Made by a program: the position numbers and the translations under genes. A stretch of 30,467 nt of DNA from a virus (Duplodnaviria > Caudoviricetes): IMG/VR virus record IMGVR_UViG_3300023314_000087, positions 1 through 30,467 of that record; one strand, 5' to 3'. Shown piece after piece: positions 2,720 through 27,172 of the stretch; the stretch's first letter is position 1; every line of letters starts with the position of its first letter. The notes beneath the pieces were generated by a model. The model did not search any database, was not told the DNA's origin, and was given only the letters and a program-made list of their open reading frames with translations.

Positions 2720-3190
2720 TTATTTTTCAATAAATTCACCTACATCTTCTTTTATAGTCTTACCACGGCTAACCATATTCTTAGCCATTTTAATAAAATC
2801 ATATCCTGTACTTAGTTTGATATTCTCTAATATTGAAAACACTTCAACTCCAACAAGTATAATAGCTACAAACTTGGTTAAAAAAAGAGAAACAACTGTA
2901 AACTGCATCACCAATTCATTCAATACATAGTTATCAATCAAGAAAAATAAAATCAATGTACCTTGATACAATAGCATCTTACTAATTAAAGCTGAAAAAC
3001 CTCTGCTAGTAATCTTTTTCTTTTGCTTATACGTTCGATATACGCCACTAAAAGTATCTAGCATAATACATAAGCCAACTAATAAAATAAGTGGTATAAT
3101 AGGCAATAGAATAGCTAAAATTAAAGCTAGGATATACTTACCAAATGCTTTGATAGTAAATAGAAAATTGTACGCTGCAATCTTAAACAT
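2720..3190 (-). CDS. Phage holin (Phage_holin_4_1/TcdE-like)
   Basis: Several TM helices with LDTFSGV...ITSRGF...KMLLY...EVFSILENI. Start moved from 3247 to the ATG at 3190, which directly follows the stop of the upstream gene (3192). Confidence 0.8.
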   Translation of the reverse strand: MFKIAAYNFLFTIKAFGKYILALILAILLPIIPLILLVGLCIMLDTFSGVYRTYKQKKKITSRGFSALISKMLLYQGTLILFFLIDNYVLNELVMQFTVVSLFLTKFVAIILVGVEVFSILENIKLSTGYDFIKMAKNMVSRGKTIKEDVGEFIEK

Positions 3191-3724: not shown

Positions 3725-4930
3725 TTAAATAGGGTTATTTGTTTCTGTTATTTGAGTTTGTATTGTGTATATGTCAGCTTCTTTAAAATGTAATTCATTG
3801 TACAATCCATTAGTAGTAATGAAACTATTAAAGATTCTTTCTAAATCCTTTTGCGCTGGTTTAATAATTGATTTATTGAATAACTTATAGCTTGATTCAA
3901 CTTCACCACTATCACCTAAACTACCAGCTGTTTTTAATCCTAATAATATCGGATTGATAGAGTGACTATAAAGAATTTGTCTTTGAATAGTATCAGTTAA
4001 ACTCATAAAGGTTTTATCTAACTTGTTTGGCTCTAATTGTGTAACCTTAGCAGCTGAATCAACTGAAGGATTAAATAGAACCATCACCTTACCAGTATTT
4101 CTAGAACCAGCAAAACTATCATTCAATGATTGTAACGTTTTTTGCTTTTCTTCATCATTCGCTGGACTTCTAAAGAATTCAATCAACATTGATGGGTTTA
4201 AACTATTAGTAATATTTGACTTGTGATAAGCAGACATTTCAGAATCTAGAACAACCCAGTTAAGACCACTTACATAGCTTGGTAAAGCGTATGTTTTCAT
4301 ACCAGCTGATTCAACTTGATGTACATATAATTGTACCTTTTCTTTTGTATTCTGTTGGTCAAATTTTGCAATCTTAACTTTACCAAACCTACCAAGTTGA
4401 GACCAATCATAACAATAGTAATAACTAGTAGGTTGCATTCTATTATCTACTTCAGCAACTCTAATTTTTTCAGGTGCTATTCTTTCAAGCTTAATAATTT
4501 TTGTATTGTTAGAATTCCAAGTAATTTGAATGTATACCCTTGAATGTAAAAAGTAATCGAATGCTAAATTGTCATACATATTTTCAAACTGATTCAATAA
4601 CTGATTCAATTTGATTTTACTTTCACCATCTAGTTTATCTTTACCATCAACATCAAAACCCTCACCTACTGTAAGTAATTTCTTTAATTGAATGCTTCTA
4701 CTATGTAATGGTGAACTATTATAAAGGTTATTCAAATCATCAGGATAAGCATTATCAGCACCGAAATAAAAGCCGTTGCTATTTCTATAATTTGTTTGAA
4801 ATGGTTTTGTATAATCTGTTTTTAAATTGAATGAATATACATCAGTCATAGTATTACCTACACCAGTTTCAACTGTTAGTGTATGTGGTTCTAATTGTGG
4901 TTTTTTAATGAAATAATCTTTGAATGCCAT
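3725..4930 (-). CDS. Phage portal protein
   Basis: 401 aa; FGADNAYPDDLNNLYNSSPLH...GEG, YALPSY, FAGSRNTGKVMV, ILYSHSINPILLG, IIKPAQ match the portal pattern of Bacteroidota phages. Confidence 0.85.
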   Translation of the reverse strand: MAFKDYFIKKPQLEPHTLTVETGVGNTMTDVYSFNLKTDYTKPFQTNYRNSNGFYFGADNAYPDDLNNLYNSSPLHSRSIQLKKLLTVGEGFDVDGKDKLDGESKIKLNQLLNQFENMYDNLAFDYFLHSRVYIQITWNSNNTKIIKLERIAPEKIRVAEVDNRMQPTSYYYCYDWSQLGRFGKVKIAKFDQQNTKEKVQLYVHQVESAGMKTYALPSYVSGLNWVVLDSEMSAYHKSNITNSLNPSMLIEFFRSPANDEEKQKTLQSLNDSFAGSRNTGKVMVLFNPSVDSAAKVTQLEPNKLDKTFMSLTDTIQRQILYSHSINPILLGLKTAGSLGDSGEVESSYKLFNKSIIKPAQKDLERIFNSFITTNGLYNELHFKEADIYTIQTQITETNNPI

Positions 4931-7015: not shown

Positions 7016-8080
7016 TTATTTTTTACTTGCATATTTCATCAACTCAACAAGTGAATCAACTGATGAAAATTCTGCTTTCATTTCGTCTTTTGTATCTTCA
7101 ATTGAAGATGTTTCTTGTTCTGTTTTTAATGCAGCAATTGCTTTATATACTTCGTCAAATAAAGGTGCTACAATAGCAAGTATTGCAGCTTCATCTGTCT
7201 TAGCTTCTTCTTCTTTTGGTGCTTCAGGTGCTGGTGCTTCTACTGCTGCTGTTTCAGTTGAACCTGATTCATACATACTTGTATCTACATTATCTTCAAC
7301 AACTTCTTCATAACTCCATACCTTACCTTCTTTGATTTCGATATGTGTACCATCTTCAAGTGTTATTTCACCATCAGTAGCTGGTACTTTTTGTAATTGG
7401 TCATCAATCATCCATACTGGTGAATCAATTGCTACATCACCTTCTACATAATATTTAGTTCCATCTTGTGCTGTTATATCAGCAAATTTTATTTTTTCCA
7501 TTTGGGTTTTATTTGTATTATCTGTTATTGATTTTTGTTTTTGTAATTCTATTGCTAGACCTAACCAAGCTTCTAGGCTAAATGAACTTCTATCACCATC
7601 TTTGACTTGTTCCCATTCAGCAGAATCTTTTACTTTAATCTTTGCCATCCAAGTACCAACTGGTAATTTGAAACCATACTTATTTGCTTTATCAAATTGT
7701 TCATCTTCAATAATCCAAGTTTCTAAAATGTATGCTGATTGAAGTTCTGTTTGATGGTCAAGATTAACCTTAGTAGATTTAGGATTTGAATTGAAATCTT
7801 CAGCTAATTGAGCTATTACTTCAGATGAAAACTTTACATAGTATTCACCCATTTCATCATCATATCTATAGATATGAATATCAGGTATTGCAACTGGTGC
7901 AACTATGATTTGTTGGTCTGCTGATAAGAATAATTTTTGTGGTGGATTCTCATTATTAAAACGAAAACCATTTACCATAATTGCAGGGTCTTTGACTATA
8001 GAAATATAGTCCATAAAGTGACCTGATTCAGTTTCTAAATCGTCAAGAGTAATTGAATAAATAGGTATATTATTAGACAT
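7016..8080 (-). CDS. Prohead serine protease (XkdF-like) fused to an acidic scaffold domain
   Basis: ISIVKDPAI, VAIPDIHIYR, VNLDH, ETWII, LPVGTWM, SFSLE, then an acidic Ala/Pro/Glu-rich C-terminus. Likely start is ATG 8080 rather than GTG 8086. Confidence 0.8.
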   Translation of the reverse strand: MSNNIPIYSITLDDLETESGHFMDYISIVKDPAIMVNGFRFNNENPPQKLFLSADQQIIVAPVAIPDIHIYRYDDEMGEYYVKFSSEVIAQLAEDFNSNPKSTKVNLDHQTELQSAYILETWIIEDEQFDKANKYGFKLPVGTWMAKIKVKDSAEWEQVKDGDRSSFSLEAWLGLAIELQKQKSITDNTNKTQMEKIKFADITAQDGTKYYVEGDVAIDSPVWMIDDQLQKVPATDGEITLEDGTHIEIKEGKVWSYEEVVEDNVDTSMYESGSTETAAVEAPAPEAPKEEEAKTDEAAILAIVAPLFDEVYKAIAALKTEQETSSIEDTKDEMKAEFSSVDSLVELMKYASKK

Positions 8081-8088
8081 ATACACCT

Positions 8089-8113
8089 AATTATCACAAA
8101 AAGTAAAACGTTC
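8089..8113 (-). promoter_or_regulatory. Putative late promoter GAAC-N14-GATAATT
   Basis: Minus strand gaacgttttactttttgtgataatt, 8 nt before ATG 8080. Confidence 0.7.
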
Positions 8114-8331
8114 GGAAGATGGAATGTGAGATATCAACAATTTTAAATTTTGGCATACCCAAAAATTTTGTTTCAAAAAAAGAAACTACCAGTTTATATA
8201 ACTGCCTATAAATCTAAACACTATGCGAATTTGCTGTTTCTTCTACTTGAAGAAATGTAAAAATCTTCTGTTTTGAATGTTAATAACGTTATTACCGCCA
8301 TTTAATTTTTTTATCTACATTCAAAATAAGA

Positions 8332-8360
8332 AATCCGCTGTAAGGTAGCGGATTACTTTT
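8332..8360. terminator. Stem-loop/terminator-like
   Basis: aatccgct-gtaaggt-agcggatt followed by actttt. Confidence 0.5.
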
Positions 8361-8374
8361 GAAACGTTGATTTG

Positions 8375-8444
8375 GGACAGGTAGCTTAACGGATAAAGCA
8401 AAGTAAACTAAGCTTAAGATGTCGGTTCGATTCCACCCTGTTTT
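8375..8444 (+). pseudogene. Degenerate tRNA-like element
   Basis: Acceptor ggacagg/cctgttt, TA, D-arm gctt..gg..aagc, anticodon arm aagt-aaactaa-gctt, T-loop ggttcgattcc. The anticodon loop lacks U33 and the T-stem is imperfect. Confidence 0.6.
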
Positions 8445-8551
8445 TACCCTTACACCGTTTTTATCAATTCGAGGTGGTCAGAAATGGCCACCTTTTCTTA
8501 TTATAAATGTAGTCTATATTATACCTTGCGTGTTTACCTACTTTTAAACAC

Positions 8552-9334
8552 CTATGTTGATATGTTCAATTCTTTGAAAAGTGCTAAACTGTTCAAACAC
8601 AACAACAAAGGTAATTTTACAACATCATTTATCTTGGTTACATCATTATTAGCCAGCTTCATTAGCAAAGCATCTAGACCCCATTTACTGACAATCTTTT
8701 CTTGTTCTATTGCTTTTTGATAGGTCAACTTATCAGCAGCCGACATTTGAGATACATCTATTTCTTCAGTTGAATCACTATCATCAAAATCAAATAAACC
8801 TGAATAGTTATCATAGATATGTTTTCTAAACTTGATATACTGATTCAATACACCATATACATCATCAATAATAGCTTCATTAAAAATATTTGCTCTATGA
8901 TTTAACCAGCTACCATATGATTCAAATTCATCAGGTATGAATGCATCATTGTTAATCTTCATACGTCTATATAGAATAGCTAGAATCTTAGGTAGGTTCT
9001 CTATACTATTTGATGTGATTAGATTTTCTAAATCTATAAACTCACCTATAATCATTGAATATAAATCAGGGTATAGATGTAAATCAGTATTAACAATTAC
9101 GATTGATTGTTTTGGTGGTTTACTTGGTAGCTTTGATAAGAATATCAATCTTGATTTGATTTGATTGAAATCATCTATATCCATTTCTTCAATAATAGTT
9201 GAATCAGTATCAGTTAGAATACTTAATAACTGAATAAAATATTCATCTTCACAATTGAAGTCTTCAACTTTAATTGATACCAGTTCTATAAATTGACCTA
9301 CACTAATTTGATTCCAGCTATCAGGTACTACCAT
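8552..9334 (-). CDS. Putative tail assembly chaperone-like protein (long paralogue)
   Basis: VPDSWNQISVGQF, GEFIDLE, ILAILYR, KWG motifs seen in Bacteroidota phage morphogenesis genes; similar to the upstream ORF. Confidence 0.5.
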   Translation of the reverse strand: MVVPDSWNQISVGQFIELVSIKVEDFNCEDEYFIQLLSILTDTDSTIIEEMDIDDFNQIKSRLIFLSKLPSKPPKQSIVIVNTDLHLYPDLYSMIIGEFIDLENLITSNSIENLPKILAILYRRMKINNDAFIPDEFESYGSWLNHRANIFNEAIIDDVYGVLNQYIKFRKHIYDNYSGLFDFDDSDSTEEIDVSQMSAADKLTYQKAIEQEKIVSKWGLDALLMKLANNDVTKINDVVKLPLLLCLNSLALFKELNIST

Positions 9335-9840
9335 TATTTAAATTGTTTGTGCAATAGATTTAAGTATGGTATAAGTATATTCATCGTCATAACACTTGAT
9401 AGTTCTTGTTTACGTTGTGCTATAGCTTCATCACTGTAATCATTAATGATATTTCCAGCTTCATCAATTGGTTTGAATATAATAGCTGCTAAGTCTTCTA
9501 TGTAGTTATTAGCATTAGCTTTAATGATTCCTTGTAAAAGGTTAATCTGTTTTACATTGAAGTTGAAAGTATCTTTGTTTGTAGATTTATATACCTTATC
9601 ATTTGCTTTGTATTCAATGATTACTGGTAAAGATGATGTATCAGTATTCTCATAATTAACGCTGTTTAAAATGGCTTTAAACTCGTCTAATTCTAATTCT
9701 TCAATCTCAGCAACTGATTTATCAGTTAAGATGTGTATTAGTTGAATAGATGTTTCTATATCATTGTTATCCGATACTTGTGATAAGTCATAGAATGCTT
9801 TGAATTTGTTTAGGGTAATAGTTGATAGATTTACTTGCAT
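9334..9840 (-). CDS. Putative tail assembly chaperone-like protein (short paralogue)
   Basis: Acidic helical protein aligning by eye with the N-terminal part of 8552..9334; its stop overlaps the next start (TAATG). Confidence 0.45.
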   Translation of the reverse strand: MQVNLSTITLNKFKAFYDLSQVSDNNDIETSIQLIHILTDKSVAEIEELELDEFKAILNSVNYENTDTSSLPVIIEYKANDKVYKSTNKDTFNFNVKQINLLQGIIKANANNYIEDLAAIIFKPIDEAGNIINDYSDEAIAQRKQELSSVMTMNILIPYLNLLHKQFK

Positions 9841-9855
9841 ATAATATTTATATCA

Positions 9856-9881
9856 AATTATCTGTATCTTAGAATTGGTTT
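9856..9881 (-). promoter_or_regulatory. Putative late promoter AAAC-N15-GATAATT
   Basis: Minus strand aaaccaattctaagatacagataatt, upstream of ATG 9840. Confidence 0.55.
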
Positions 9882-9887
9882 TAAACT

Positions 9888-10073
9888 ATGAAAGACACAT
9901 TATTTATTATAGGCTTTATCATCATCAGTATTATTGGTGGATTTATTTTAGTTAGTGGTGTTCAACTCTTTTGGACTTTAGTTGCTGAATTGATAGGTGC
10001 TTTATGGTTACCAGCTTTGATAGTAGGAGTTTTATACCTAATCTATGTTAACTATACTTCTAAGAAACAATAA
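9888..10073 (+). CDS. Small two-TM membrane protein
   Basis: 61 aa, almost fully hydrophobic, ATG start, basic C-terminus. Confidence 0.6.
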   Translation: MKDTLFIIGFIIISIIGGFILVSGVQLFWTLVAELIGALWLPALIVGVLYLIYVNYTSKKQ

Positions 10074-10088
10074 TCTTATAATTTATTT

Positions 10089-11000
10089 CCGAGTACTTAG
10101 CGAGGCGGAGCCTCCACGGTTCACTCGGTCAATCCGTATAAATTTCTTATAAAATAACTTTCAATCCAGATTGAAAGTTATGAAAGTATATATGTCAAAT
10201 TGTCGGTTGATAACTATATCAATTGTGATGAAGTTCCGCTTTGCTACACAACATCAATTTATATGATTAATATTATCATATTAATATAATTGTGATGAAG
10301 TCGCTTTGCTCCAACATCATATTTTTATATAACAGCGAATGCTGTTATGATAGTGTGTAAAGTTCCGCTTACGCTTCACAATAATTCATTTATTGTGGTG
10401 ATTCACATCACCACGTAGTAGAGATAAATAATGTAAAATAAGGCAAGCTATGCAAGCCAAATAATACATTATAAATTATCTTTTATAATCGACAAAGTCG
10501 ATGGTTTGGTGTTTTCTATTTTTTTTGCCCTGATATAAATTTTCTCACCCATTGAGGGTGATAAAATTCATTATATTTTAAATCGAAGATTCTAAACACC
10601 GCTTCATATTTCAAATTGAAATTTTGAAATATAATCTTAAAAAAGAAATTAAAACTTTATAATTGATTGGCATACGAAGTTTGCCTTTCAATTATATCAC
10701 ATCTTGTTTTAACGTAGTTAAAACGGCTTAAACCCCACAGGGGGTTGAGGTCTGAAAGACCTCTTTATACTGGCTCTATTAGAGCCATAAACCTAATAGT
10801 TGCAACGCAACTATTTATACACATATATATTTATTTACTAACATATTGATATGCATTGTCCGTTAATATGTTATTATTTTAATATATTATATTTATGTTA
10901 TAAATATAATATGAGCGAGTTGATATGTTACGCACTGTACGAACCTAATGGTAAGACCTAATGTTAAACGTGGAGGCTTCGCCTCACACGATGCATTAGG
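10089..11000. other. ~900-bp hairpin-tiled non-coding element (structured DNA site or large ncRNA)
   Basis: About 20 inverted repeats in series, nested stems, three copies of an internal repeat, 17-bp near-terminal inverted repeats, and no ORF in the track. Confidence 0.8.
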
Positions 11001-11550
11001 AAAATCCATTAGTGTATTCAGAAATGATAGTATCTTTTAAGTTGCGCATCAAATGATATGTTTGTGTTTTACACAAACCAATATGATTAGATACTTTAGA
11101 TACACTTGTTGGTGTATCACCACTAAACATTAATGAAAAAAGTATTTGCTGGTCTAATGGTAATGTTGGTATAGTTTGCTTTATATGGGTTAGTTTGTTT
11201 TTGATTTCTGATTCTACATTTAATAGTTGTTGAATATCGATTTCATCAATGATAGAATCTTGAATCTGGTTTGTATTGTGTTTTGTAAGGAATTTCTTTT
11301 TAAACTCGGTTCTTTCCCATACAATTTGCTTATTCATATAGTTTATGATGATTGCTTCAGTCATTCCGGATTTTGTAATATGGTCTTCAAGTTTTTGCAA
11401 GTTGTTATAAATGTATTCGTAAGATTGATTAACAAGGTCATTAACTAAATCAGTCCTATTTATTTTCTTTAGAATGTTATAGGCACATTCTATTAAATAG
11501 GGCTGATTTTTCGTAAAATAGGTATCAATTATGGATTTACTTTGATTCAT
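10996..11550 (-). CDS. Sigma-factor-like protein (divergent ECF-type / sigma region 4 HTH)
   Basis: NDLVNQSYEYI region-2-like helix; LPLDQQILFSL...SVSKVSNHIGLCKTQTYHLMRNLK region-4-like HTH. Confidence 0.6.
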   Translation of the reverse strand: MNQSKSIIDTYFTKNQPYLIECAYNILKKINRTDLVNDLVNQSYEYIYNNLQKLEDHITKSGMTEAIIINYMNKQIVWERTEFKKKFLTKHNTNQIQDSIIDEIDIQQLLNVESEIKNKLTHIKQTIPTLPLDQQILFSLMFSGDTPTSVSKVSNHIGLCKTQTYHLMRNLKDTIISEYTNGFS

Positions 11551-12550: not shown

Positions 12551-12576
12551 ATAAATATGTGCGAAAACTCAAAAAG
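12551..12576 (-). promoter_or_regulatory. Putative second-class promoter CTTTTT-N12-ATATTTAT
   Basis: Same motif and spacing as 13072-13097; both are followed by AATAAA and a start codon. Confidence 0.5.
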
Positions 12577-13057
12577 TCAAATTATTTTTAAAAATGTTTT
12601 CAGCTTGTTGAAGTGTTTGGTTTAGGTTGTATTCAGATTTATAAATTGAGGCTTCAAATTGGCTTAAATAGCCATTGCATTTGCTTACTGTTCTATTATC
12701 ACCTTGTGTAGTTTTAGGGTTGTATTCATATATCCAATTAGGTTCTGTTGCTTGTTTGATTGTCCAGACCTGAACTCCATCAGAATGAATGTTTATGTAT
12801 AGTGTTTGGAATGTAGAAGCTGTTAGGGTATCATACTTGGGTTTTTCTATTAACCAGTCGTTATAACGTGCTAGAGGGTACTTATCTCTTACTTTCACTT
12901 CAACCTTATACCAAGTGTTAGCTGAATAAATAATTGCATCAAAAGAAGAATAACCAGTTACTGGTGTTGTATAGATTATTGTGAAGTCTTTTTGTTTGTC
13001 TTCAAATTGTTGAAGTAGTAAACGTTCCCTAATACTGGTGATTGTGAATTGTGACAT
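12569..13057 (-). CDS. PD-(D/E)XK superfamily nuclease-like protein
   Basis: YSSFDAII...KVEVKVR catalytic pattern, LIEKPKYD, LYIN. Confidence 0.65.
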   Translation of the reverse strand: MSQFTITSIRERLLLQQFEDKQKDFTIIYTTPVTGYSSFDAIIYSANTWYKVEVKVRDKYPLARYNDWLIEKPKYDTLTASTFQTLYINIHSDGVQVWTIKQATEPNWIYEYNPKTTQGDNRTVSKCNGYLSQFEASIYKSEYNLNQTLQQAENIFKNNLTF

Positions 13058-13071
13058 ATTGTTTGTTTATT

Positions 13072-13097
13072 ATAAATATGTCGATTTGTATAAAAAG
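13072..13097 (-). promoter_or_regulatory. Putative second-class promoter CTTTTT-N12-ATATTTAT
   Basis: Minus strand ctttttatacaaatcgacatatttat, 14 nt before ATG 13057. Confidence 0.5.
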
Positions 13098-13593
13098 CCT
13101 GGTATAAACGAAAAATAGTTAACGAGTTTATTTCATTGATTATGTGTTGAATATGAGATATAAAAAATATTTAGTGTACTTCAAAGTCTAAAACCTGTTT
13201 TGGTATTAATTGATTTTATAATTTTGTTCTAAGAAATTCTAAGAGAAAAGTATTTTATAAAGTTGAAAGATTCATAAATTTTATTTACACTTGTTGTAAC
13301 TATTGAGTTGAAGAGTTTTAAATAAAGGTGGTGATGATAAACGTGCTAGAGATATAACAAATGCTGGTGATGAAGATGATGATGAAGATGGTTGATGTGA
13401 AAATTTTACAGATAAATGGACAAATTGTCCTAAAGTTGAAAGTTGTTTAAATTTCGTGTAGATTGCACTATAAATAAAAAAGGTCAGTATAAAAACCGAC
13501 CTAATTAACGTTCGCAGCGTTGCAGAATTAAGTTAAAGGGTAAGGAACAAGATTTATTGGATTCCAAGCCTTTATTTCCCTGAGACCTTTAAT

Positions 13594-13620
13594 GGGTGAC
13601 CTTCCAAAAGTCACCCTTTT
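13594..13620. terminator. Terminator-like hairpin
   Basis: gggtgac-cttccaaaa-gtcaccc-tttt; lies downstream of the minus-strand ORF ending at 13671, but the T-run is on the plus strand. Confidence 0.55.
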
Positions 13621-13670
13621 CTGTTTTATAAAAGTAACTAAAAATTTGATATTATGACCTTTTTTGTGGT

Positions 13671-14029: not shown

Positions 14030-14072
14030 ATATAGACAAATAAACAACTTCTAGTTGATGTTGTCAAGGTTG
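14030..14072. repeat. 43-bp site, inverted copy of 30000-30042
   Basis: atatagacaaataaacaacttctagttgatgttgtcaaggttg matches the reverse complement of 30000-30042 at 38/43 positions. Confidence 0.85.
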
Positions 14073-14086
14073 CTTATCAAATATTT

Positions 14087-14356
14087 TTATCTTTTATTTA
14101 GAAACTGGTTAAAGATGTAATCATTTTCCTTTACCAAACCATCTAAGCAGAATTGATAGACTTCATTTCTATCTTCAATGGTTTCTAATCTGTAATAGTT
14201 GGTTAGTTTATCAGCAAAGAATTCTAAAGTCTTTTGTACTTGTTCTTTTAATAGTCCAGCAGCTTCATAATTTTCATTATTAACTAGCTGAATAAGTTCA
14301 TCATTACTGTTTACGATAAACTCACTTATTTGATTGATTTCATTTTCTTGATTCAC
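14087..14356 (-). CDS. Small protein with a UVR (UvrB/UvrC) coiled-coil motif
   Basis: LVNNENYEAAGLLKEQV resembles the UVR consensus (AxxxEDYExAAxLRDxI). Confidence 0.5.
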   Translation of the reverse strand: MNQENEINQISEFIVNSNDELIQLVNNENYEAAGLLKEQVQKTLEFFADKLTNYYRLETIEDRNEVYQFCLDGLVKENDYIFNQFLNKR

Positions 14357-14381: not shown

Positions 14382-15077
14382 TTATGCATAGATACCTAGT
14401 TTCTTTTCTTCAAGGATAGCGTCAATTTGATACCTGTTTGTTATTTGACCTTTATCTAATTTTGATTTGAAATCATCAACTATTTTTGGTGATACACCGA
14501 AATAATAAATACTTTTTATGTGGTCAGCTATCAGTTGATAATCTTCAACTAATAAATCAATTTCACTTAATGTTGAAGCTGAATCAATTGTTATTCCTAA
14601 ATCATCTTCTAGTGATGTTTCTTTAGGCTTTTGAGCTGCTTTTGGTTCAATGGCTGGTGTTTGTATTGCTTTTGAAATGGCTGGCTTATTTGGCTTTATT
14701 TGAGGCTGATTTTTAGTAGCTTCTAATTTAAGCGGAGCTTCATCTGTTATTGCTAACCATTGACTAAATAAATCTTCATTAACAATCATAACTTTGTTAT
14801 TGAAGTAACCACCATCTTTAGTTTTAATTGATGATTTTTTTGAAATGAACCAATCATATTGATTTAGTTGAGTAATACAATATTGAAGTGTTCTTACTTC
14901 TATTCCAAATTTAACTGCTAGTTGATTATTAGAATCTGTACAAGTTAGGTTTGAAGCTTGTAAGCTAATTACATATTGAATGATTAGCTTTTGTTGCGCT
15001 GTTAGCTTAGTTGATGATAGTACATTAGTGAATACTTTAATGTAGTTAGGCTTTTCTGTTTTTGTTGATGTTTTCAA
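14382..15077 (-). CDS. Putative replication initiator / HTH DNA-binding protein
   Basis: N-terminal winged-HTH pattern (YIKV...LTAQQKLII...SNNQLAVKFGIEVRTLQYCITQL), a Pro/Lys linker, and a position beside an iteron array; TTG start. Confidence 0.6.
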   Translation of the reverse strand: MKTSTKTEKPNYIKVFTNVLSSTKLTAQQKLIIQYVISLQASNLTCTDSNNQLAVKFGIEVRTLQYCITQLNQYDWFISKKSSIKTKDGGYFNNKVMIVNEDLFSQWLAITDEAPLKLEATKNQPQIKPNKPAISKAIQTPAIEPKAAQKPKETSLEDDLGITIDSASTLSEIDLLVEDYQLIADHIKSIYYFGVSPKIVDDFKSKLDKGQITNRYQIDAILEEKKLGIYA

Positions 15078-15310
15078 TTTTCATTTTATTCTGCTTTTTA
15101 TGTTATTTCTGCTTTTAGTCTGGTGCAGAAGCTAAGGGTAATTACTCCCTTAGCAACCAGAGTAGATTGAACTACTTTTAATAAATATCATTAAGTATAA
15201 GCAAAATCAAAAAATAGTCAAGTAAAATTGATATATTATTGAAAAATACCTAAAATTAGGTATAAGTATTACTATTGATGTTTATTTCAATTGAAATGGT
15301 TTTCTTCAAT

Positions 15311-15429
15311 CATATTATAATAATACTAAATTGTAATAATATATAATAGTTATACTATAGTAATACTCTATTCTTATTCTTATATACTAATCTTATAGTT
15401 TATTCTTATAGTATAATCTTATAATAGAG
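15311..15429. other. AT-rich, strand-skewed tract (putative DNA unwinding element)
   Basis: Almost GC-free, with repeated tcttata units, abutting the iterons. Confidence 0.5.
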
Positions 15430-15525
15430 ATACCAAATTTGTGTATTATCTCAATACCAAAAAACTGTATTATCATAATACCAAATTTGTGTATTATCCT
15501 AATACCAAAAAACTGTATTATCCTA
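15430..15525. repeat. 4 x 24-bp tandem repeats (putative origin iterons)
   Basis: ataccaaatttgtgtattatctca / ataccaaaaaactgtattatcata / ataccaaatttgtgtattatccta / ataccaaaaaactgtattatccta. Confidence 0.85.
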
Positions 15526-15607
15526 TTAAAAAGAAAACCATCAACAAAGAATTACTTCAATGCTGATGGTTCTTATTTCAATTTAGTTCAATGCAAATAT
15601 AATAATC

Positions 15608-17148: not shown

Positions 17149-17682
17149 ATGCAACCTCAATCATACATAAGAATTAAAAATGCATTAGCATACTTTGCAA
17201 CCCATCATTTGACCTTAAAAAGGTTTAACTGTTCTTTTAGTGAGCAGCTAGATAATTTTTCAAGTTCAGATAATTCTTTTCCAATTCTTTATTGTGTACC
17301 AAATGATGTATCATTTTTAGAGAATACAGATAGTTATTCATTCAGAATATACTGCCTTGATTTGCTTCAAAAAGACCGTTCTAATGAATCATTTGTACTA
17401 AACAATACTTTGCTAGTGTTAAGAGATTTAGTTAACTGGATAAGGCTAGATAGAGAAAATGAAATAAACATTTCAAATACACCAGTAGCTAGACCAGTAA
17501 ACAATTTCTTAGTTGATTTTAGTTGTGGCTGGTATCTTGATTTAGAAATTGAAGGTGTAGCCTTAGCTAGTGATTGTGCAATACCATTTAGTAACAATTT
17601 TAATCCTGATTCAAATTATATTCTTAGTGAAGATGGATTTATTATTTGTGCTGAAAATGGTGATATGATTGAATGGACATAA
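17149..17682 (+). CDS. Putative tail terminator/completion protein
   Basis: FPILYCVP, YSFRIYCLD, VLNNTLLVLRDL, GWYLDLEI..CAIP; C-terminal YILSEDG motif. Partly a context call. Confidence 0.5.
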   Translation: MQPQSYIRIKNALAYFATHHLTLKRFNCSFSEQLDNFSSSDNSFPILYCVPNDVSFLENTDSYSFRIYCLDLLQKDRSNESFVLNNTLLVLRDLVNWIRLDRENEINISNTPVARPVNNFLVDFSCGWYLDLEIEGVALASDCAIPFSNNFNPDSNYILSEDGFIICAENGDMIEWT

Positions 17683-17708
17683 CAAAAAGATAGAAACATA
17701 AAACCCAA

Positions 17709-19442
17709 ATGGCAAATAAAAAGATTACTCAATTACCATCATCAACAGGTGTAACACTTGAAACAATAATACCAGTTGTTATTGATGGACAAACAGAACA
17801 AACAACACTTCAATCATTAGAAACTCTTTTTGATGATAGTGATTTATATAATCAAATTACTGGATTAGATAATGTAGCTCTATCTGGACTTACAGGTATT
17901 GAAACATTAGCATTAGCTCAAACAGGTACAACATCAGCTTATCAAATAACTTTAGAAGATTTAAAGAGATTATTCATTGATACACCTTATGGTAATGGAA
18001 TTGTATTTGTTGGTGAATCAAGAGACTTTGAAGCGAATGATGAAGGTAAATTAATAGTAGTTGGTTCTGATTCTGGTGAGGTTATTTTAACAATGCCAGA
18101 GGGTCAAATATTTCAAGGTGGTAAAACATCATTAGTATTCCTTACTGCTGGTGGTTATCAAACAGTACCAGATAGTAATATAATCTATCCATTCATTAAA
18201 CAAGGTTCTGCTAATGATAATAATACTCAAGGTCAATTCTTACAATTTTTAAGCTACTATGATGATGAAAAATTAGAATCTGGTTTAGCATTATTATCAT
18301 CATCTGATGGTTATATTTTAGACCCAGCTGATAACACAAAATCATTAACCACTATAAAATACTTGTTTGATAAAGTTGCTAGTTTAACTGCTTCTACTGG
18401 TAGTGATTCATTATTCACAAGTGGTTCAAGTGGCAACTATTCAATAAAAGTTATAAATGATACTGAAACAGATGCTACAGGAAATTATTCAACAGCATTT
18501 GGAATTAGTAATTCAGCATCTGGTACATCGTCATTTGCTATTGGAACTGGTACACACGCTGAAGGTGAAAATTCATTTGCTTCAGGCAATTTAACTACAG
18601 CTAGTGGTGTTAATAGCCACGCTGAAGGTTATCAATCAACAGCTTCAAACTTTACTAGTCACGCTGAAGGATTCCAAACAACAGCTAATGGTATAAATAG
18701 CCATTCTGAAGGAGCTTTAACTGTTGCTAGTGGAAATTATAGCCACGCTCAAAACTATCAAACTACAGCATCAGGTGAACATTCTACAGCTATAGGTTAT
18801 GGCTCAACTGCATCTGGATATGGTTCATTTGCTTATGGGGGTTCTAGAGATAGATATGATGAAAATTTTATTGCTGGTGGTACAGCTAGTGGAATTGGTT
18901 CATTTGCTGGTGGTGGTTTATGTATTGCTAGTGGTAAAGATTCTGTTGCTTTAGGTAGTGCTGCAATTGCTAGTGGTGCTGGTTCATTTGCAATGGGTGG
19001 TACTGAAGGTGGTGATAATGAATCACACACAACAGCTTCAGGTTTAGGTGCATTTGCAATTGGATTTGGTAGTGTAGCAAGTGGTGACCAATCATTTGCT
19101 GGTGGTGGTGATTATGGTAATAGTGATATTACTGGTGGTATAGCTAGTGGTCATAATTCATTTGCATTTGGTCCTGGTTCTAGAGCAACTAATTCATATT
19201 GTACAGCAATAGGTTTTGCAGCAGAATCAAATGGTTACAATACAACTGTAATTGGTAATGGTATTGTAGGTAATGCAGATGGTACATTATACATAAATAA
19301 GTTAAATGTACTGTCTTTACCAGCGTATGATGATGAATCAGCTGCAACATCAGATGGTTTAGAAACTGGAACTATTTATAGAACTACTGGTTCAGGTTCA
19401 GCACCTTTAAATGTAGCTGGTATTTTAATGATTAAATTATAA
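17709..19442 (+). CDS. Fibre/spike protein with YadA-head-like (Hep_Hag) repeats
   Basis: Many 14-residue ASGxxSxAxG repeats in the C-terminal half; N-terminus MANKKITQLP. Confidence 0.75.
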   Translation: MANKKITQLPSSTGVTLETIIPVVIDGQTEQTTLQSLETLFDDSDLYNQITGLDNVALSGLTGIETLALAQTGTTSAYQITLEDLKRLFIDTPYGNGIVFVGESRDFEANDEGKLIVVGSDSGEVILTMPEGQIFQGGKTSLVFLTAGGYQTVPDSNIIYPFIKQGSANDNNTQGQFLQFLSYYDDEKLESGLALLSSSDGYILDPADNTKSLTTIKYLFDKVASLTASTGSDSLFTSGSSGNYSIKVINDTETDATGNYSTAFGISNSASGTSSFAIGTGTHAEGENSFASGNLTTASGVNSHAEGYQSTASNFTSHAEGFQTTANGINSHSEGALTVASGNYSHAQNYQTTASGEHSTAIGYGSTASGYGSFAYGGSRDRYDENFIAGGTASGIGSFAGGGLCIASGKDSVALGSAAIASGAGSFAMGGTEGGDNESHTTASGLGAFAIGFGSVASGDQSFAGGGDYGNSDITGGIASGHNSFAFGPGSRATNSYCTAIGFAAESNGYNTTVIGNGIVGNADGTLYINKLNVLSLPAYDDESAATSDGLETGTIYRTTGSGSAPLNVAGILMIKL

Positions 19443-19816
19443 TGGCAAATAAAAAGATAACACAATTACCGATAACTGATGTAGTAACAAAAGATACTAT
19501 CATTCCAATAGTTGACAATGCTGTAACTAAACATACAACTATTGATAAAATTGGAAATGTATTAAACGTTAAACATAAAATAAAAACAGATAAGGTTATT
19601 GAAGCTGATGATACTGTTGTTATTAGTGGTGATTATTTGATTTTCAAAACAACATTAACTATCAATGAATTTGAATCTGATTATGGTCAATTGTACATTG
19701 GTGGTAATCTAATAATAGCAGATAGTCAAGTAATAAATGATGGTGTAATCAATGTTGCTGGTGGAATTGAATTTATTGGTGATGCTTCAATAATTGGAAA
19801 TGGTGTAATAGTATGA
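19442..19816 (+). CDS. Small putative virion protein sharing its N-terminus with the upstream fibre
   Basis: MANKKITQLP N-terminus and a beta-helix-like Gly/Ile-rich remainder. Confidence 0.55.
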   Translation: MANKKITQLPITDVVTKDTIIPIVDNAVTKHTTIDKIGNVLNVKHKIKTDKVIEADDTVVISGDYLIFKTTLTINEFESDYGQLYIGGNLIIADSQVINDGVINVAGGIEFIGDASIIGNGVIV

Positions 19817-20100
19817 TTCAAGCAAAGGAAATAGCGAATGATTTAACTGATTTATTCAAAAGAATAATAAAGGATAAGAAACTAATTGAAACTGGTAGGC
19901 TATACAATTCTATCAAGTTTACAGCTGTTGAAAATAGTTCAGGTATTAATTTCCAATTGTCAGCCGTTGACTATTTCAAGTTTATTGATGAAAAGTATGG
20001 AGTTACTAAATCAGCTTTAAATAGTAGAGAATATCAAAATATTCAAAATAAGATAGCTGAATACTATACAGCCATTATTACAAAAGAACTAGAAGTATAA
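19813..20100 (+). CDS. Putative tail completion protein (HK97 gp10-like)
   Basis: LIETGRLYNSI resembles the DTGxLRxSI motif. Confidence 0.55.
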   Translation: MIQAKEIANDLTDLFKRIIKDKKLIETGRLYNSIKFTAVENSSGINFQLSAVDYFKFIDEKYGVTKSALNSREYQNIQNKIAEYYTAIITKELEV

Positions 20101-20125
20101 AAACATCTGATTGAAACGGATAATT
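20101..20125 (+). promoter_or_regulatory. Putative late promoter AAAC-N14-GATAATT
   Basis: aaacatctgattgaaacggataatt, upstream of ATG 20143. Confidence 0.7.
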
Positions 20126-20142
20126 CTTATTAAAGAAATTTA

Positions 20143-21570
20143 ATGAGTACAATTATAAAAGGTTATCCAAGTGGTTTTGATTCTGCATTTAATCCAACAT
20201 ATTTTTATTACGACAGTACAAATAAAGGTGAACAAGGCTTTAAGTATGTAATTGATGTTTTAGAAGATGGAACTAGTAATTTAATTTCAAGATTAAAATA
20301 TTTCCCAGCACCTTCTACAGGTTATGCAGTTGCTAATTTGCAACAAATTTTAGCTACTCAAGTTGGTTACTATTTCAATCCAAATCTTAATGGATTTGCA
20401 GCAACACCTCAAAATTATTTTCCTTATAAACTTGAAGTTGGTGAAGAATATATTGCTTATTGGAATTACAATAATAACTATTCAGTTAGTGGTGGTACAA
20501 GAACTGGATTTTCAGCATCAACAGCTACAACACACAACTTTAATGTAAATGATAGACTTTATTTTATACCTACCACAAATTCAACTTATAGTGGTTTATA
20601 TACAGTAACCAATGTACCGAACAACCATACCTTAGAAATTAATAAATTTTACTCAAGTGCTGGTAATGATAGTGGAAAGGTTACAACAGGTGCTAAAACC
20701 TTTTTTAGTGGTCTTTCATCTGCATCTAATTTTGTTGTTTTCAATGGAGTTATAGACCATCAACAATTAGCTAACTTTGATGGATATAATACTTACAATA
20801 TTAATACTGGTTCTACTAAGAAATTATTAACAAACCTACCTGATGAATTTCCAATTAAACTAGATAACAAATGTTATGTAAACTTCTTTACAAATCAGAA
20901 TTACAATATTAGCGGTCTTTATATAAAAACTGATACAGGTGGTGAATACAAAATAAATAACATTTCAACTTCTAGTGTAATGCTTACTATTGGCGTTGCA
21001 CCATCAAATATAACTGCTTCAACCTATTCAACTATTAGTGGTGCAACATCAGCATTTACTGATAATGTATCATCTTATCAAGTTTACTTAGTTGATTCTT
21101 CAAATAATAGGATTAGCGAAATTAAATCATTCGTTATTGATGATAATTGTTCTAGATACACAAACTATGAGTTATTGTTTATGGATAGAAAAGGCGCATT
21201 TTCACCATTTAATTTTGATTTACAATCAACAAGAACTATCAATGTAGAACGTTCACAATATCAATCAACATTAGGTTATCTAAGTGGCTTTAAATGGTCT
21301 TTTGATAGTTCAAGTGTCGGTAATCAAGTATTAAATACATCAGCATCTGAAGAATTAGAATTACAAACAAATTGGTTAACTGAAACACAATCATTTTATT
21401 TTAAGGAGTTGATTAGTTCACCAGTTGTTTTTATAAAAGAAAATGGTAAGTACTGGCCAGTAATAATTAAAACAAATTCTTTACAGGTTTTAACAAAGAA
21501 CAATAAAAAAAATATCCAGTACAAGATAATTGTACAATATGGAAATAACAATTCAATTCAACATTTCTAA
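20143..21570 (+). CDS. Putative distal tail/baseplate protein
   Basis: GFKYVIDV N-terminus; C-terminal LLFMDRKGAF..FNF, LQTNWLTE, ELISSPVVF pattern of Bacteroidota phage tail proteins; Ser/Thr/Asn-rich. Confidence 0.55.
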   Translation: MSTIIKGYPSGFDSAFNPTYFYYDSTNKGEQGFKYVIDVLEDGTSNLISRLKYFPAPSTGYAVANLQQILATQVGYYFNPNLNGFAATPQNYFPYKLEVGEEYIAYWNYNNNYSVSGGTRTGFSASTATTHNFNVNDRLYFIPTTNSTYSGLYTVTNVPNNHTLEINKFYSSAGNDSGKVTTGAKTFFSGLSSASNFVVFNGVIDHQQLANFDGYNTYNINTGSTKKLLTNLPDEFPIKLDNKCYVNFFTNQNYNISGLYIKTDTGGEYKINNISTSSVMLTIGVAPSNITASTYSTISGATSAFTDNVSSYQVYLVDSSNNRISEIKSFVIDDNCSRYTNYELLFMDRKGAFSPFNFDLQSTRTINVERSQYQSTLGYLSGFKWSFDSSSVGNQVLNTSASEELELQTNWLTETQSFYFKELISSPVVFIKENGKYWPVIIKTNSLQVLTKNNKKNIQYKIIVQYGNNNSIQHF

Positions 21571-21572
21571 GT

Positions 21573-23933
21573 ATGGCTAGTGTAACAAAGATTCAATTAA
21601 GTGATAAGGGTTATTTAGATGTACAAGATGATGTGAATATTCCTTTAACGTTTGCATTAAGTGACATCAAGGATATAAGTAAACGTAATAGTAGTTACAG
21701 TAAAACTATTCGTTTAGCTGGTACTTCAAATAACAATATACTGTTAGGTATGATTTTTAATGTAAATGTTTTTGATAGTAGTTTTAATCAAGCAAAAACT
21801 GAAAGATGTACCATATATCAAAATGATGTACCAATTATGAATGGTGTATTTAGATTGAATAATGTAAATATTGATGGTGATAAAATTGATTATGAAGCTG
21901 AAGTAAGAGATGATTCAGGTGATTTCTATTCAACAATTTCAGATAAATTATTAACTGATTTAGAAGGCTTTGAACAATACAATCACATCTATCAACCTTC
22001 AGCTGTATTATATTCATTCAATAATACTTATAGAAATGGTTATAAGTATCACTTAATGTACAATACAAAACCTTGGTACAAGCTAGAAGATTTTACACCA
22101 AATATATTTGCTAAAACTTATTTTGATGCAATTTTTCAAGATGCTGGATTTTCTTATAAATGGGATTCACTTGAAGAATTGAATTTTGATAAACTTATAA
22201 TTCCTTATAATGGAGCTAAACCAGTTACAAACCTTGATTTATATAGATTTCGTGCTGGTATGAATGATGATGGTCAAATTATGACAACTTATTATGATGA
22301 TAGAAAATCTGCAATGAATTTCAATCAAACAAACTTTAATACACCACCATTAAAAAATCCCAATAATTATTACAGTACAACTAGTGGAACGTGGACTAGT
22401 CCTTTTTCAGGTGCAACAAATAAATTTAAAGTAAGATATAACTATGTAAGCTACTTATATAGTCCAGTTAATTTGTATGTTGATTGTAGTATAGCTATTG
22501 GTAACTATTTAGGATATGGTTATTTAAATAGAACTTTGTCACATTACATTGGTGATAGTAACACTAATCAATTTATACCATTAACTAATAGTGTATTTGC
22601 TGAAAGCCACATAAGATTTTCATCAACTGATGGTAATTTATATATTCCAGCTGGTGAACATTTTCCAATGTCAGGTTTAACACCTGAATTTATTGGTGAA
22701 ACAGATTTACAAGTTGGTCAAAAAATTACAAATTATTTAAGTTGTGAAATTAAACGTGGTGCTACTGGTGGTGCAAACAATGGATATTATGACCATCCAC
22801 CATTCAATGCTTCATTTCAATTTAGATATAATAATTCAAGTGGTGCAATAATTCCAGTAACTAGTCCTGATTACCCAGTATTAAGAACTTACATAGGTGC
22901 AGCAATCATAGGTGAAAATATAGATAATGAAAGAGAATATTTTTACAATGAACCAATTGCAACATTTCAACAAGGTATGACTGTAAATATTCCTGATTTT
23001 ATACCAGCTAAAATAAAGCAAAAGGATTTCCTTAAAGCTATTAGCCAAATGTATAACCTATATATAACCCCTTCAAAAGAAAATGATAGACAACTAGTAA
23101 TAAGGACAAGAAATGAATTCTATAATGGTGGTGATGTTAAAGATTGGTCTAATAAATTAGATGTCTCTCAAAATATTAAAGTAGAATTTTTACCTGATTT
23201 ACAGAATAAGAAGATTCTCTTTACTTATAAAGCTGATACAGATTTATTTAATAAAACTTACACAGATACCGTTGGTGAAATTTATGGTCAAGCTGAATAT
23301 ACATTTCAAAGCGAATACGCAAAAGATACTTTGACAATTGGTAACACTTTATTTAGTCCAACGCCTCTAGCAAACAATGGTGGTCAAGTTGATATTTCAT
23401 TATTTCCATCTGTATTTAGTGCTGTAACCACAGATTTAATTGTACCAACTATCAATTGTGGTGAACCAAAAAACAATATTAGAATACTATATGATGGTGG
23501 TAATATAGATGGTGCTTGGGGTTTTAACTATGGAAATTTTGGATATAGTACAACAATCTTTTATGTTACATATCCTTACTTAGGTCATTTTTATCCTAAT
23601 CCAATTTTACCAACTGAAGACCTAAACTGGGGTTTATGTGATTATCAATTTTATGATAATTGGAGTGGTTTAACAAATAACAATTTATACAACAGACATT
23701 ATAGCAGATACATCAATCAAATTGAAACAGGAAAACTATTAACTGGAAAATTTAAACTTGATGAAATTGATATTGTGAATTTAGATTTTAGAGATAAGAT
23801 TTGGTTGAATGATTCTTATTGGTTTATAAACAAAATAACAGATTATAATGCAAATGAAAATGGCTTAACTGCTGTTGAATTAATATCAGTAGATGAGGGT
23901 ACAATCTTTGCACCAAATAATAATATTATATAA
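21573..23933 (+). CDS. Putative baseplate hub/tail tip protein
   Basis: LDV..IPLTFALSDIKDISKRNSSYSKTIRL N-terminus, QKDFLKAISQMYNL, DWSNKLD, and C-terminal LDFRDKIWL..WFINKITDY..VELI. Confidence 0.6.
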   Translation: MASVTKIQLSDKGYLDVQDDVNIPLTFALSDIKDISKRNSSYSKTIRLAGTSNNNILLGMIFNVNVFDSSFNQAKTERCTIYQNDVPIMNGVFRLNNVNIDGDKIDYEAEVRDDSGDFYSTISDKLLTDLEGFEQYNHIYQPSAVLYSFNNTYRNGYKYHLMYNTKPWYKLEDFTPNIFAKTYFDAIFQDAGFSYKWDSLEELNFDKLIIPYNGAKPVTNLDLYRFRAGMNDDGQIMTTYYDDRKSAMNFNQTNFNTPPLKNPNNYYSTTSGTWTSPFSGATNKFKVRYNYVSYLYSPVNLYVDCSIAIGNYLGYGYLNRTLSHYIGDSNTNQFIPLTNSVFAESHIRFSSTDGNLYIPAGEHFPMSGLTPEFIGETDLQVGQKITNYLSCEIKRGATGGANNGYYDHPPFNASFQFRYNNSSGAIIPVTSPDYPVLRTYIGAAIIGENIDNEREYFYNEPIATFQQGMTVNIPDFIPAKIKQKDFLKAISQMYNLYITPSKENDRQLVIRTRNEFYNGGDVKDWSNKLDVSQNIKVEFLPDLQNKKILFTYKADTDLFNKTYTDTVGEIYGQAEYTFQSEYAKDTLTIGNTLFSPTPLANNGGQVDISLFPSVFSAVTTDLIVPTINCGEPKNNIRILYDGGNIDGAWGFNYGNFGYSTTIFYVTYPYLGHFYPNPILPTEDLNWGLCDYQFYDNWSGLTNNNLYNRHYSRYINQIETGKLLTGKFKLDEIDIVNLDFRDKIWLNDSYWFINKITDYNANENGLTAVELISVDEGTIFAPNNNII

Positions 23934-24892
23934 TGAGAACAACAGTAAAAAAAACAGGTGGACGATTCGATTATTTAAGTAATGAGGTTTCTAAACTACA
24001 AACAAATACAGATAATAGATTAGGTCAAAATGTAACTTCAATTCAAATAAATGGAATAGATAATTTTATTCAAGCTGGTTCAACATCAAGTGTAGTTAAT
24101 GGTAATAATAATTCTATTGCTTGTGTAAATTCATCTATTAATGGTACAGGAAATACTGTATCTGTAAAAAATTCAATTTTAATAGGTAATGATAATTCTA
24201 TTAATGGTGATAATGTAATTGCTTTAGGTGTAAGTGGATTAACTGGCTACAGTAATTCAACTTATATTGGTTCACCATCAATTTATTTGGGTGATGTGAA
24301 TAGCGTAATTTATGTTAATGGTGATAATAAAAATGTACTTTATAATTTATGGTCTACAGGTATTAGTGGTGAATCATCATTAAAAACAATTGGAAATAGA
24401 TATACTGAAGCATCTGCTGATTATGCAATGGCAACAGGTACTTATGCAAACGCTTCACACTATGCTGAAATTGCTAGAAGCTCATCAAATCTAGGTCAAT
24501 ATGGTACAGTTTCTTGGGCTGGGTATTCTACAAATGATTCAGCAAAGGAATTGAATCTTGGTAATGGTGATAAGTTTACACTTACAAGTGGTGATACATA
24601 TTTCTTTGAAGTTAAGGCTATTGCTTCAAATCCATCTACAGGTAATGCTAAACAATGGACTGCATCAGCTTTAATTAAAAACATTTCAGGAACTACTTCA
24701 ATTGTAGGTATTCCAATAGTTACATCAGATTATGCAGATTCTGAATTATCAGGTACAGGTATCAGTTTACTAGCAAATGATACAGATGATACTTTGAAAG
24801 TTTCAGTTACTGGAAATACATCAACACATATTAACTGGTTTGTAAAAGGTGATTATATCAAAGTAAACAAAAGCAATATAGCAGATTCTTAA
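23933..24892 (+). CDS. Putative tail fibre/receptor-binding protein
   Basis: Asn/Gly repeats (NGxxN) followed by a beta-rich C-terminal domain; TAATG-coupled to the hub gene. Confidence 0.5.
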   Translation: MRTTVKKTGGRFDYLSNEVSKLQTNTDNRLGQNVTSIQINGIDNFIQAGSTSSVVNGNNNSIACVNSSINGTGNTVSVKNSILIGNDNSINGDNVIALGVSGLTGYSNSTYIGSPSIYLGDVNSVIYVNGDNKNVLYNLWSTGISGESSLKTIGNRYTEASADYAMATGTYANASHYAEIARSSSNLGQYGTVSWAGYSTNDSAKELNLGNGDKFTLTSGDTYFFEVKAIASNPSTGNAKQWTASALIKNISGTTSIVGIPIVTSDYADSELSGTGISLLANDTDDTLKVSVTGNTSTHINWFVKGDYIKVNKSNIADS

Positions 24893-24917
24893 AAACAGAC
24901 GCATCATTTAGATAATT
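24893..24917 (+). promoter_or_regulatory. Putative late promoter AAAC-N14-GATAATT
   Basis: aaacagacgcatcatttagataatt, upstream of ATG 24936. Confidence 0.7.
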
Positions 24918-24935
24918 CTAGGTAAAGCTAGAATA

Positions 24936-26882: not shown

Positions 26883-26907
26883 GAATGAATAACAAGAATT
26901 GATAATT
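26883..26907 (+). promoter_or_regulatory. Putative late promoter GAAT-N14-GATAATT
   Basis: gaatgaataacaagaattgataatt followed by ctaggt (also follows the 24911 copy) and ATG 26914. Confidence 0.6.
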
Positions 26908-26913
26908 CTAGGT

Positions 26914-27168
26914 ATGACTGAAAATAAAATTGCAAATAAAAATGATATGCTAGAGCTATTGGTAACAACTCTAACAGCTTTAAACAATTGCTTCAAAGGT
27001 GATGATAATTACCAAAAGTATACAAGTGATTTAAAAGTTCTATCAAAATACTTTTTTCCTGAATACAATAGTAAATGCAATAGTTGTAGTGAAGGTCAAA
27101 TAAAAATAATGCTTGGCGAATACTGGGTTAAAACTGGTAAAGCAGAATATGAAAACATAAATAGTTAA
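26914..27168 (+). CDS. Small CxxC protein upstream of the terminase
   Basis: KCNSCS motif; start moved from TTG 26899, which overlaps the promoter motif, to ATG 26914. Confidence 0.55.
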   Translation: MTENKIANKNDMLELLVTTLTALNNCFKGDDNYQKYTSDLKVLSKYFFPEYNSKCNSCSEGQIKIMLGEYWVKTGKAEYENINS

Positions 27169-27172
27169 TAGA

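Follow-up and report, generated by a model that had tools for sequence, protein, structure and literature searches.

What is the function of a gene-free block of about 900 bp, tiled with hairpins, in the DNA of a tailed phage? The block occupies positions 10089-11000 of the window, by which is meant the entire stretch of 30,467 nucleotides that was analyzed. The window is a tailed-phage region with a G+C content of 29% and carries genes for a portal, a protease, a terminase, a tape-measure protein, a holin and sigma factors (Pfam, PHROGs). It is probably a prophage because the same proteins sit on a 133-kb contig. The UmuC protein of the window is 58-61% identical to UmuC of Flavobacterium and Emticicia, and this identity points to a host among the Bacteroidota. 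The open reading frame (ORF) list of the window has no ORF of at least 60 aa within 10074-10995. Two genes are directed into the block from its flanks: a hydrophobic ORF of 61 aa on the plus strand (9888-10073), for which the homologue search listed no relatives, and the gene of a 184-aa sigma-like/HTH phage protein on the minus strand (10996-11550).

The block is situated at a break of synteny, because relatives join the 184-aa gene to terminase genes and a 168/260-aa gene pair to the tape-measure gene. The terminase genes come after the 184-aa gene in most relatives with placeable neighbors, and the tape-measure gene is often found ahead of the pair. The terS and terL genes of the window phage are 16 kb from the block. 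In the related genomes G408 and G418 the tail/terminase module is placed between the 184-aa and 168-aa genes, and relative to these two the tail and terminase module of the window (17149-28938) is inverted and permuted. Two 59-bp segments, 14030-14088 and 29984-30042, form an inverted pair with 80% complementarity, which encloses 16 kb with replication, sigma, tail and terminase genes. The pair ends just upstream of a serine recombinase gene (30138), itself truncated by the right end of the window, and could represent an invertible segment or recombinase sites. A degenerate tRNA-like sequence is located on the plus strand at 8375-8444, within the morphogenesis cluster, the genes of which are on the minus strand. 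It scores 31.7 bits in Rfam and has no ARAGORN call, and contigs of run X1 branch just ahead of it, at 8282-8311. A 162-aa protein (12569-13057) resembles phage PD-(D/E)XK endonucleases (Atlas, TM 0.66 to the PDDEXK_14 cluster) and is possibly a cutter of branched DNA. It is also encoded by relatives that do not have the block.

The preliminary description of this locus as a non-coding, hairpin-tiled block of about 900 bp is accurate, and every stem that it listed was found in its place. The block contains 20 perfect hairpins (stem of at least 6, loop of 3-8) compared to 2.6 ± 1.6 expected from 500 dinucleotide shuffles, the maximum of which was 8, although a small number of these overlap one another as alternatives (10261-10287, 10606-10632). 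Each of the remaining 30 one-kb bins contains 0-10 perfect hairpins. The block also folds far better than its shuffled controls on both strands, with z scores of -16.1 and -13.8 for the plus and minus strands as RNA and -13.9 and -15.7 as DNA. None of 20 shuffles folded as well for any combination of strand and chemistry, and three of the four best 400-nt folding tiles of the window are supplied by the block.

Other parts of the description require adjustment. Three-nucleotide loops are indeed frequent, being found in 7 of the 20 perfect hairpins (about 19% expected), but the GNA type is enriched rather than dominant: GNA tips, counted on either strand, make up 5 of 12 triloops in the block compared to 4 of 49 elsewhere in the window (p 0.011), and the remaining 7 of the 12 are not of this type. 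The hairpin scan confirmed a perfect palindrome of 12-13 bp at 10154-10181 (no strand assigned), but its stem reaches the reported 13 bp only with a 2-nt loop. The statement that the block is not a simple repeat overlooks three degenerate direct repeats (10221-10382) and ends that form an inverted pair.

The left terminal module (10086-10131, plus strand) begins 13 nt past the stop codon of the 61-aa ORF and consists of a GAGGC-GGA-GCCTC mini-hairpin inside an outer stem (10089-94/10123-28), with a CACG tail. The right terminal module (10954-11003, minus strand) overlaps the final codons and the stop codon of the 184-aa gene. It contains GAGGC-GAA-GCCTC and the CACG tail, and its outer stem is different in sequence but likewise pairs. 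The two ends are thus one module in inverted orientation, 87% complementary across 23 nt and identical in 33 of 50 alignment columns. Their local alignment score is 40, whereas windows off the minus-strand module score 22 at most. Each module carries a GC-GNA-GC mini-hairpin, and the two mini-hairpins are on opposite strands (the plus strand has the GGA loop, at ~10105, and the minus strand the GAA loop, at ~10982). The modules are 830 nt apart and there are about 18 more hairpins between them.

Sequence comparison and folding place the three degenerate direct repeats on the minus strand of the left half (10219-10384), with a spacing of about 65 nt. On this strand, repeats 1 and 2 form stems with tandem T.T and G.A mismatches, which were read by hand, and an AAA loop, and repeat 3 has a GC-GTAA-GC tip. 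An AT-rich palindrome and the 10329-48 hairpin are found between the repeats. The repeats were also considered as a CRISPR mini-array; there is no Rfam repeat match and the spacers are themselves palindromic, and this candidate was rejected. The rest of the left half (10377-10573), also assigned to the minus strand, contains the hairpins 10377-97, 10395-414, 10424-80, 10488-502 and 10535-71, of which the second has a GTGA loop and the third three tandem T.T mismatches, both on the minus strand. The right half (10581-10912) is assigned to the plus strand, where five consecutive GNA tips are found at 10584, 10617, 10675, 10713 and 10753. T.T mismatches are on the plus strand in 10658-96, as are G.T pairs in 10825-87, and the hairpins 10731-46, 10771-87, 10795-815 and 10884-912 are strand-neutral.

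Along the block, the non-canonical features are on the plus strand at ~10106 (GNA), on the minus strand over 10220-10573 (GNNA tips, T.T, G.A), on the plus strand again over 10584-10753 (GNA) and on the minus strand at ~10981; two features depart from this order, a weak tip on the plus strand at 10414 and an AAA loop at 10494. The block can be read as two plus-then-minus units in tandem, and the polarity of each unit matches that of the smaller origin-linked clusters in G407 and G408 described below. Loops of the inner hairpins tend to favor minus in the left half and plus in the right half, and this polarity is suggestive only because an automated change-point test of the inner hairpins gave p values of 0.063 for loops (8/8), 0.18 for mismatches (6/6) and 0.098 for both (10/11).

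The nature of the base pairs bears on whether the block acts as DNA or as RNA. Pairs with a probability above 0.8 were compared to those of control RNAs from genomes of Bacteroidota type, five of them RNase P RNAs and five tmRNAs. In agreement with the earlier remark that the stems are nearly all Watson-Crick, G-U pairs account for 6 of 180 pairs on the plus strand and 7 of 177 on the minus strand (3-4%), but for 66 of 524 (13%) in the ten control RNAs (p 2e-4 and 6e-4, respectively). When G-U pairs are counted against G-C pairs to allow for composition, the p values are 0.008 and 0.03. The antisense strands of the control RNAs have 21 G-U pairs in 436, so that both strands of the block resemble the antisense of an RNA. 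Furthermore, 134 of the 180 plus-strand pairs (74%) recur on the minus strand, compared to 139 of 524 (27%) in the controls, although part of the contrast in both G-U content and mirroring is expected for any short stems because the controls are complex RNAs, richer in G+C. The scarcity of G-U and the mirroring of pairs favor DNA over one RNA.

The mini-hairpin motifs point the same way, although 7 of the 12 triloops are not GNA. The block contains three of the four GCGNAGC/GCGNNAGC motifs present in the window (p 1e-4), and the exact tips are GCGGAGC, GCGAAGC and GCGTAAGC. A review of such structures states that the DNA mini-hairpin forms with GNA loops only and has a far weaker RNA counterpart, that SSB has little affinity for a doubled mini-hairpin, and that DNA mini-hairpins are known from the G4 origin, ssiA and the N4 promoter (PMC13037366). 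The preference of the preliminary description for folded DNA over a single non-coding RNA is thus supported by strands that fold alike, by few G-U pairs and by the concentration of these motifs, but its analogy with the T5 injection stop signal (iss) is not supported, and membership in the GOLLD/ROOL group fails at Rfam, as discussed below. Taken together, the DNA-level readings account for about two thirds of the probability.

The block is seen in one genome and one near-identical fragment. No diverged homologue was found in searches of phages, plasmids, viral contigs, metagenomes and genomes. A blastn search of 50,697 phage records returned 9 short matches of up to 47 nt, and 72,556 plasmids gave no match. 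Motif scans of viral contigs gave 4, 3 and 10 loci with no homologue among them, and the longest match to the block in 36 viral relatives is 33 nt. A metagenome scan recovered L082, a single identical copy that is not independent, as well as two unrelated matches. In 401 genomes of the genus of G001 there were 64 short AT-rich matches (best E 4e-7), 15 of which were examined and judged to be chance, and 331 and 401 genomes of two other families gave no match at 1e-7. The distant prophages G539 and G717 do not have the block. Flanking proteins used as single queries retrieved no viral loci, and alignment A1 retrieved none in genome contigs. The end motif, with one mismatch allowed, occurs in 1 of 401 genomes, which is about the level of a reversed control. 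Its three viral matches look like chance; the one examined, in L079, falls inside an open frame and is not a homologue. In L143, an unrelated phage, a hairpin with a GC-GAA-GC tip and tandem A.A mismatches is found right behind two sigma-70-type promoters (3001-3021 and 4834-4854). This copy of the 10436-56 motif is a look-alike and was read as chance.

In eleven near-whole relatives, with protein identities of 27-72%, the number of hairpins per 900 nt never exceeds 7, compared to 15 in the block; the hairpin count took in all 11 and the folding scan 7 of them. As none of the 11 has a block of this size, such phages generally do not need it. The only variant comes from a freshwater run, X2, in which two contigs cross 10416-10700 at a depth of 5 and differ from the window by seven substitutions and one deletion (comparison range 8000-10870). 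None of the seven substitutions touches a position that is paired on either strand, against a background of 57% paired positions on plus and 46% on minus, and the deletion affects a base that pairs on plus. No RNA run is listed among the sequencing runs that contain the sequence, which carries no information on expression. One change makes a GTA loop on the minus strand of hairpin 10424-80 and three changes invert the loop of hairpin 10488-502. The differences amount to about six events, four of them within one linker, with none compensatory, and the pattern gives weak support to selection on the stems.

A candidate partner of the block is the origin region of the phage. An O-like replication initiator gene (14382-15077, minus strand) was recognized by weak PHROGs matches, and a repeat search located an AT-rich tract with four 24-bp iteron-like repeats (15430-15528) at 15310-15528 (no strand assigned). 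The repeats are of two alternating types and, together with a long hairpin, are situated upstream of the O-like gene; the region 15310-15582 is the probable initiator-binding origin. The block is on the AT-tract side of the iterons, 4.4 kb and eight genes away. There are no C-GNA-G tips at the window's own origin between 14733 and 20211, and searches of 37 window proteins against Pfam and of 35 against PHROGs gave no match to a family of primases, helicases or SSBs.

Two relatives, G407 (L002, 18700-19400) and G408 (7630-8160), have non-coding clusters of 300-450 nt with C-GAA-G, C-GTA-G and C-GTAA-G tips. In both clusters the plus-strand tips precede the minus-strand tips, and an AT-rich tract, iterons and an initiator-like gene come immediately afterwards. 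The initiator of G407 shares 26% identity with that of the window. At least five such tips in 500 non-coding nt were found only in G407, G408 and the window among 36 sequences scanned (the window, 11 near-whole relatives and 24 loci, some overlapping). The G407 and G408 clusters are not independent because they are partly homologous to each other, and they fold far less strongly than the block (z -3.4, -5.0 and -2.1). A profile search gave no homology between them and the block (E >1), and only words of 9-14 nt are shared. L066 and G416, which have initiator-like genes and iterons, carry no such cluster upstream. A motif scan for the clusters returned no new member and missed G408 itself, so that these scans are not exhaustive. 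The two clusters share a repeated GTTGA word and have no Rfam match; as a candidate for a new origin element they are cleaner than the block. A second non-coding stretch of the window, 610 nt long (13058-13670), contains five GTTGA words and an AGGTC-GT hairpin resembling the start of the relatives' clusters, and has no profile match.

The best explanation of the block, with a probability of about 0.35, is that the block folds when single-stranded and in this form most probably provides a signal that primes phage replication, similar to ssiA and ssiB of RSF1010, to which it is likened by layout. Beyond the observed anatomy, namely the hairpins, the inverted terminal modules that bear GC-GNA-GC tips on opposite strands, the low share of G-U and the mirrored pairs, we infer the following steps. 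The initiator bound at the iterons (15430-15528) would open the AT-rich tract, and a host helicase travelling leftwards would unwind the block. As each strand is exposed, its mini-hairpins would form, withstand SSB and load a host primase or primosome, resulting in the priming of both strands. The signal would be read by host proteins because the window gave no match to a primase or helicase. Against priming, the block is 4.4 kb from the iterons instead of adjoining them, and the terminal modules are on the sense strand at gene ends, for which a role at the transcript level is an equally good explanation.

A broader form of the priming hypothesis is doubtful. It supposes that a family of Bacteroidota tailed phages without a primase of their own may prime both strands from mini-hairpin arrays read by host proteins, in the manner of an IncQ-like two-site origin, and that in the present phage the array may have been doubled to 900 nt and moved off the iterons as a free-standing module. 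The literature searched, mostly outside subscription journals, gave no description of such a hairpin array in Bacteroidota phages, and an IncQ-like two-site priming origin is not known from tailed phages.

A structured RNA is a rather unlikely source of this anatomy. It could be one large non-coding RNA or two divergent RNAs of ~400-480 nt starting from ~10575, of which the minus-strand RNA would run leftwards and the plus-strand RNA rightwards. The RNA folding is very strong, RNA parameters favor the minus strand in most modules of the left half and the plus strand in several of the right half, the GTGA and GTAA tips of the minus strand fit GNRA loops, and large phage-borne RNAs have been reported (10.1101/2024.12.08.627333). 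However, G-U pairs number only 2 of 77 and 3 of 100 on the 'preferred' halves, and triloops outnumber the GNRA and UNCG tetraloops that dominate the control RNAs. A single RNA could not have both polarities, and the block lacks a Bacteroidota-type -7 promoter motif. As to a GOLLD/ROOL-type RNA, no Rfam covariance model matched at its gathering score, and the best match, with an E value of 0.063, scores well short of the cut-off. The features of a large structured non-coding RNA, a one-strand fold with G-U pairs and GNRA/UNCG loops, are not those of the block. Two further RNA candidates were rejected, a group I or II intron, for which Rfam has no match, and a type III antitoxin array, as the genes downstream are the morphogenesis cluster.

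The three other DNA-level or transcript-level explanations are each improbable. The block comes after the 184-aa gene, where relatives have their terminase genes, and its two-fold symmetry about 10575 would suit a site that is cut or bound near the symmetry center, such as pac, cos or an end-protection signal. Nevertheless, a packaging or genome-end signal is unlikely with terS and terL as distant as they are in the window phage, with relatives having no such block beside their terminase genes and with DnaA boxes not enriched, unlike in the T5 iss. Terminases work on double-stranded DNA, and their action leaves the loops of single-stranded type unexplained. Control of transcription between the convergent genes, by hairpins at the 3' end of each transcript and by terminators, operators or sites of antitermination serving the late operon that begins at 9840, would account for terminal modules that coincide with a stop codon and are on the sense strand. 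Three terminator-like sites are present in 9800-11100 (0.2 expected), the phage encodes three sigma-like proteins, and operators can be palindromes. This role has a small probability all the same: no T-run directly follows the terminal-module stems, some 20 different palindromes far exceed what termination needs, and relatives manage these genes with no such block. A non-autonomous mobile or recombination element of the MITE/REPIN kind would explain the inverted ends, and the scar of a rearrangement junction, with palindromes perfected by template switching, the position at the synteny break. Template switching can invert hairpin loops, and the loop inversion in X2 is a change of this kind; the phage also encodes the serine recombinase and the PD-(D/E)XK-like protein. 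Such a descent is nonetheless improbable for a block that is present in a single copy in the window, has no visible target-site duplication and has a right end belonging to the last codons of a gene, and the end motif is about as frequent in the 401 genomes as its reversed control.

Should the block prove to be a single-strand signal, a double-stranded DNA phage would possess a large natural element of folded DNA, one that points to how Bacteroidota phages without their own primase recruit that of the host. A recent report describes single-stranded DNA hairpins at phage origins as triggers of the OLD and Lamassu systems (10.64898/2026.07.10.737580), so that an array of 20 hairpins should then be costly or serve as a decoy. 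If the block is transcribed into a functional RNA, that RNA is an undescribed large phage RNA with unusually low G-U content. Either way, the block is a compact, clonable object, which is real, unusually ordered and easily tested.

By the features tested, the block is outside the Rfam families, the T5 iss type and the IncQ ssi family, although it has something in common with each of several known systems. The T5 injection stop signal is likewise an untranslated stretch of phage DNA, about 1 kb long, with many palindromes and repeats, and the iss regions carry about eight ordered DnaA boxes (10.1101/866236). In contrast, with the DnaA-box consensus from the same source there is 1 match in the block and there are 4 in the window, compared to 7.5 expected, and the block has no DnaA-box cluster and is not conserved among relatives. 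The T5 signal is also tied to a position near a fixed genome end and to two-step injection, whereas the block, known here from contigs alone, shows no sign of terminal repeats or of such an injection. GOLLD, ROOL, OLE and the UG27 non-coding RNA arrays (for UG27, 10.64898/2026.09.22.753630) are similarly long, structured non-coding stretches of phages and prophages. The block differs from the first three by having no Rfam match, few G-U pairs and strands that fold alike, and from the UG27 array, which adjoins a reverse transcriptase and accessory genes, in that no reverse transcriptase family is found among the window proteins. Terminal inverted repeats are shared with MITE and REPIN elements, the dispersed copies of which were not found in the window, the viral contigs or the 401 genomes, the host chromosome being outside the data.

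The resemblance is closer to systems in which single-stranded DNA is folded. The mini-hairpins of the G4 origin and the N4 early promoter have the same GCGGAGC, GCGAAGC and GCGTAAGC tips as the block (PMC13037366), and the GCGGAGC hairpin of the N4 promoter occurs at ~10105 on the plus strand. However, the block is in a tailed double-stranded DNA prophage and most of its tips are of another type, and the window, the longest ORF of which is 786 aa, has no gene for an N4-like virion RNA polymerase of 3,500 aa. The IncQ plasmid RSF1010 has in ssiA and ssiB two inverted hairpin sites of 40 nt on complementary strands (PMC8567376). The position of the block is not that of these sites, as the iteron-like repeats are 4.4 kb away and the block's pair of modules is separated by 830 nt with about 18 hairpins enclosed. 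The RepB' primase and RepA helicase were not matched among the 37 window proteins, a comparison in which many small ORFs are unassigned and the prophage extends beyond the window. Nevertheless, the layout of ssiA and ssiB, two similar inverted hairpin modules of 40-50 nt on opposite strands, is also that of the block, and the C-GNA-G mini-hairpin tip is common to the ssi sites and the terminal modules. The likeness extends to the mini-hairpin clusters of G407 and G408, which adjoin their AT-rich tract and iterons.
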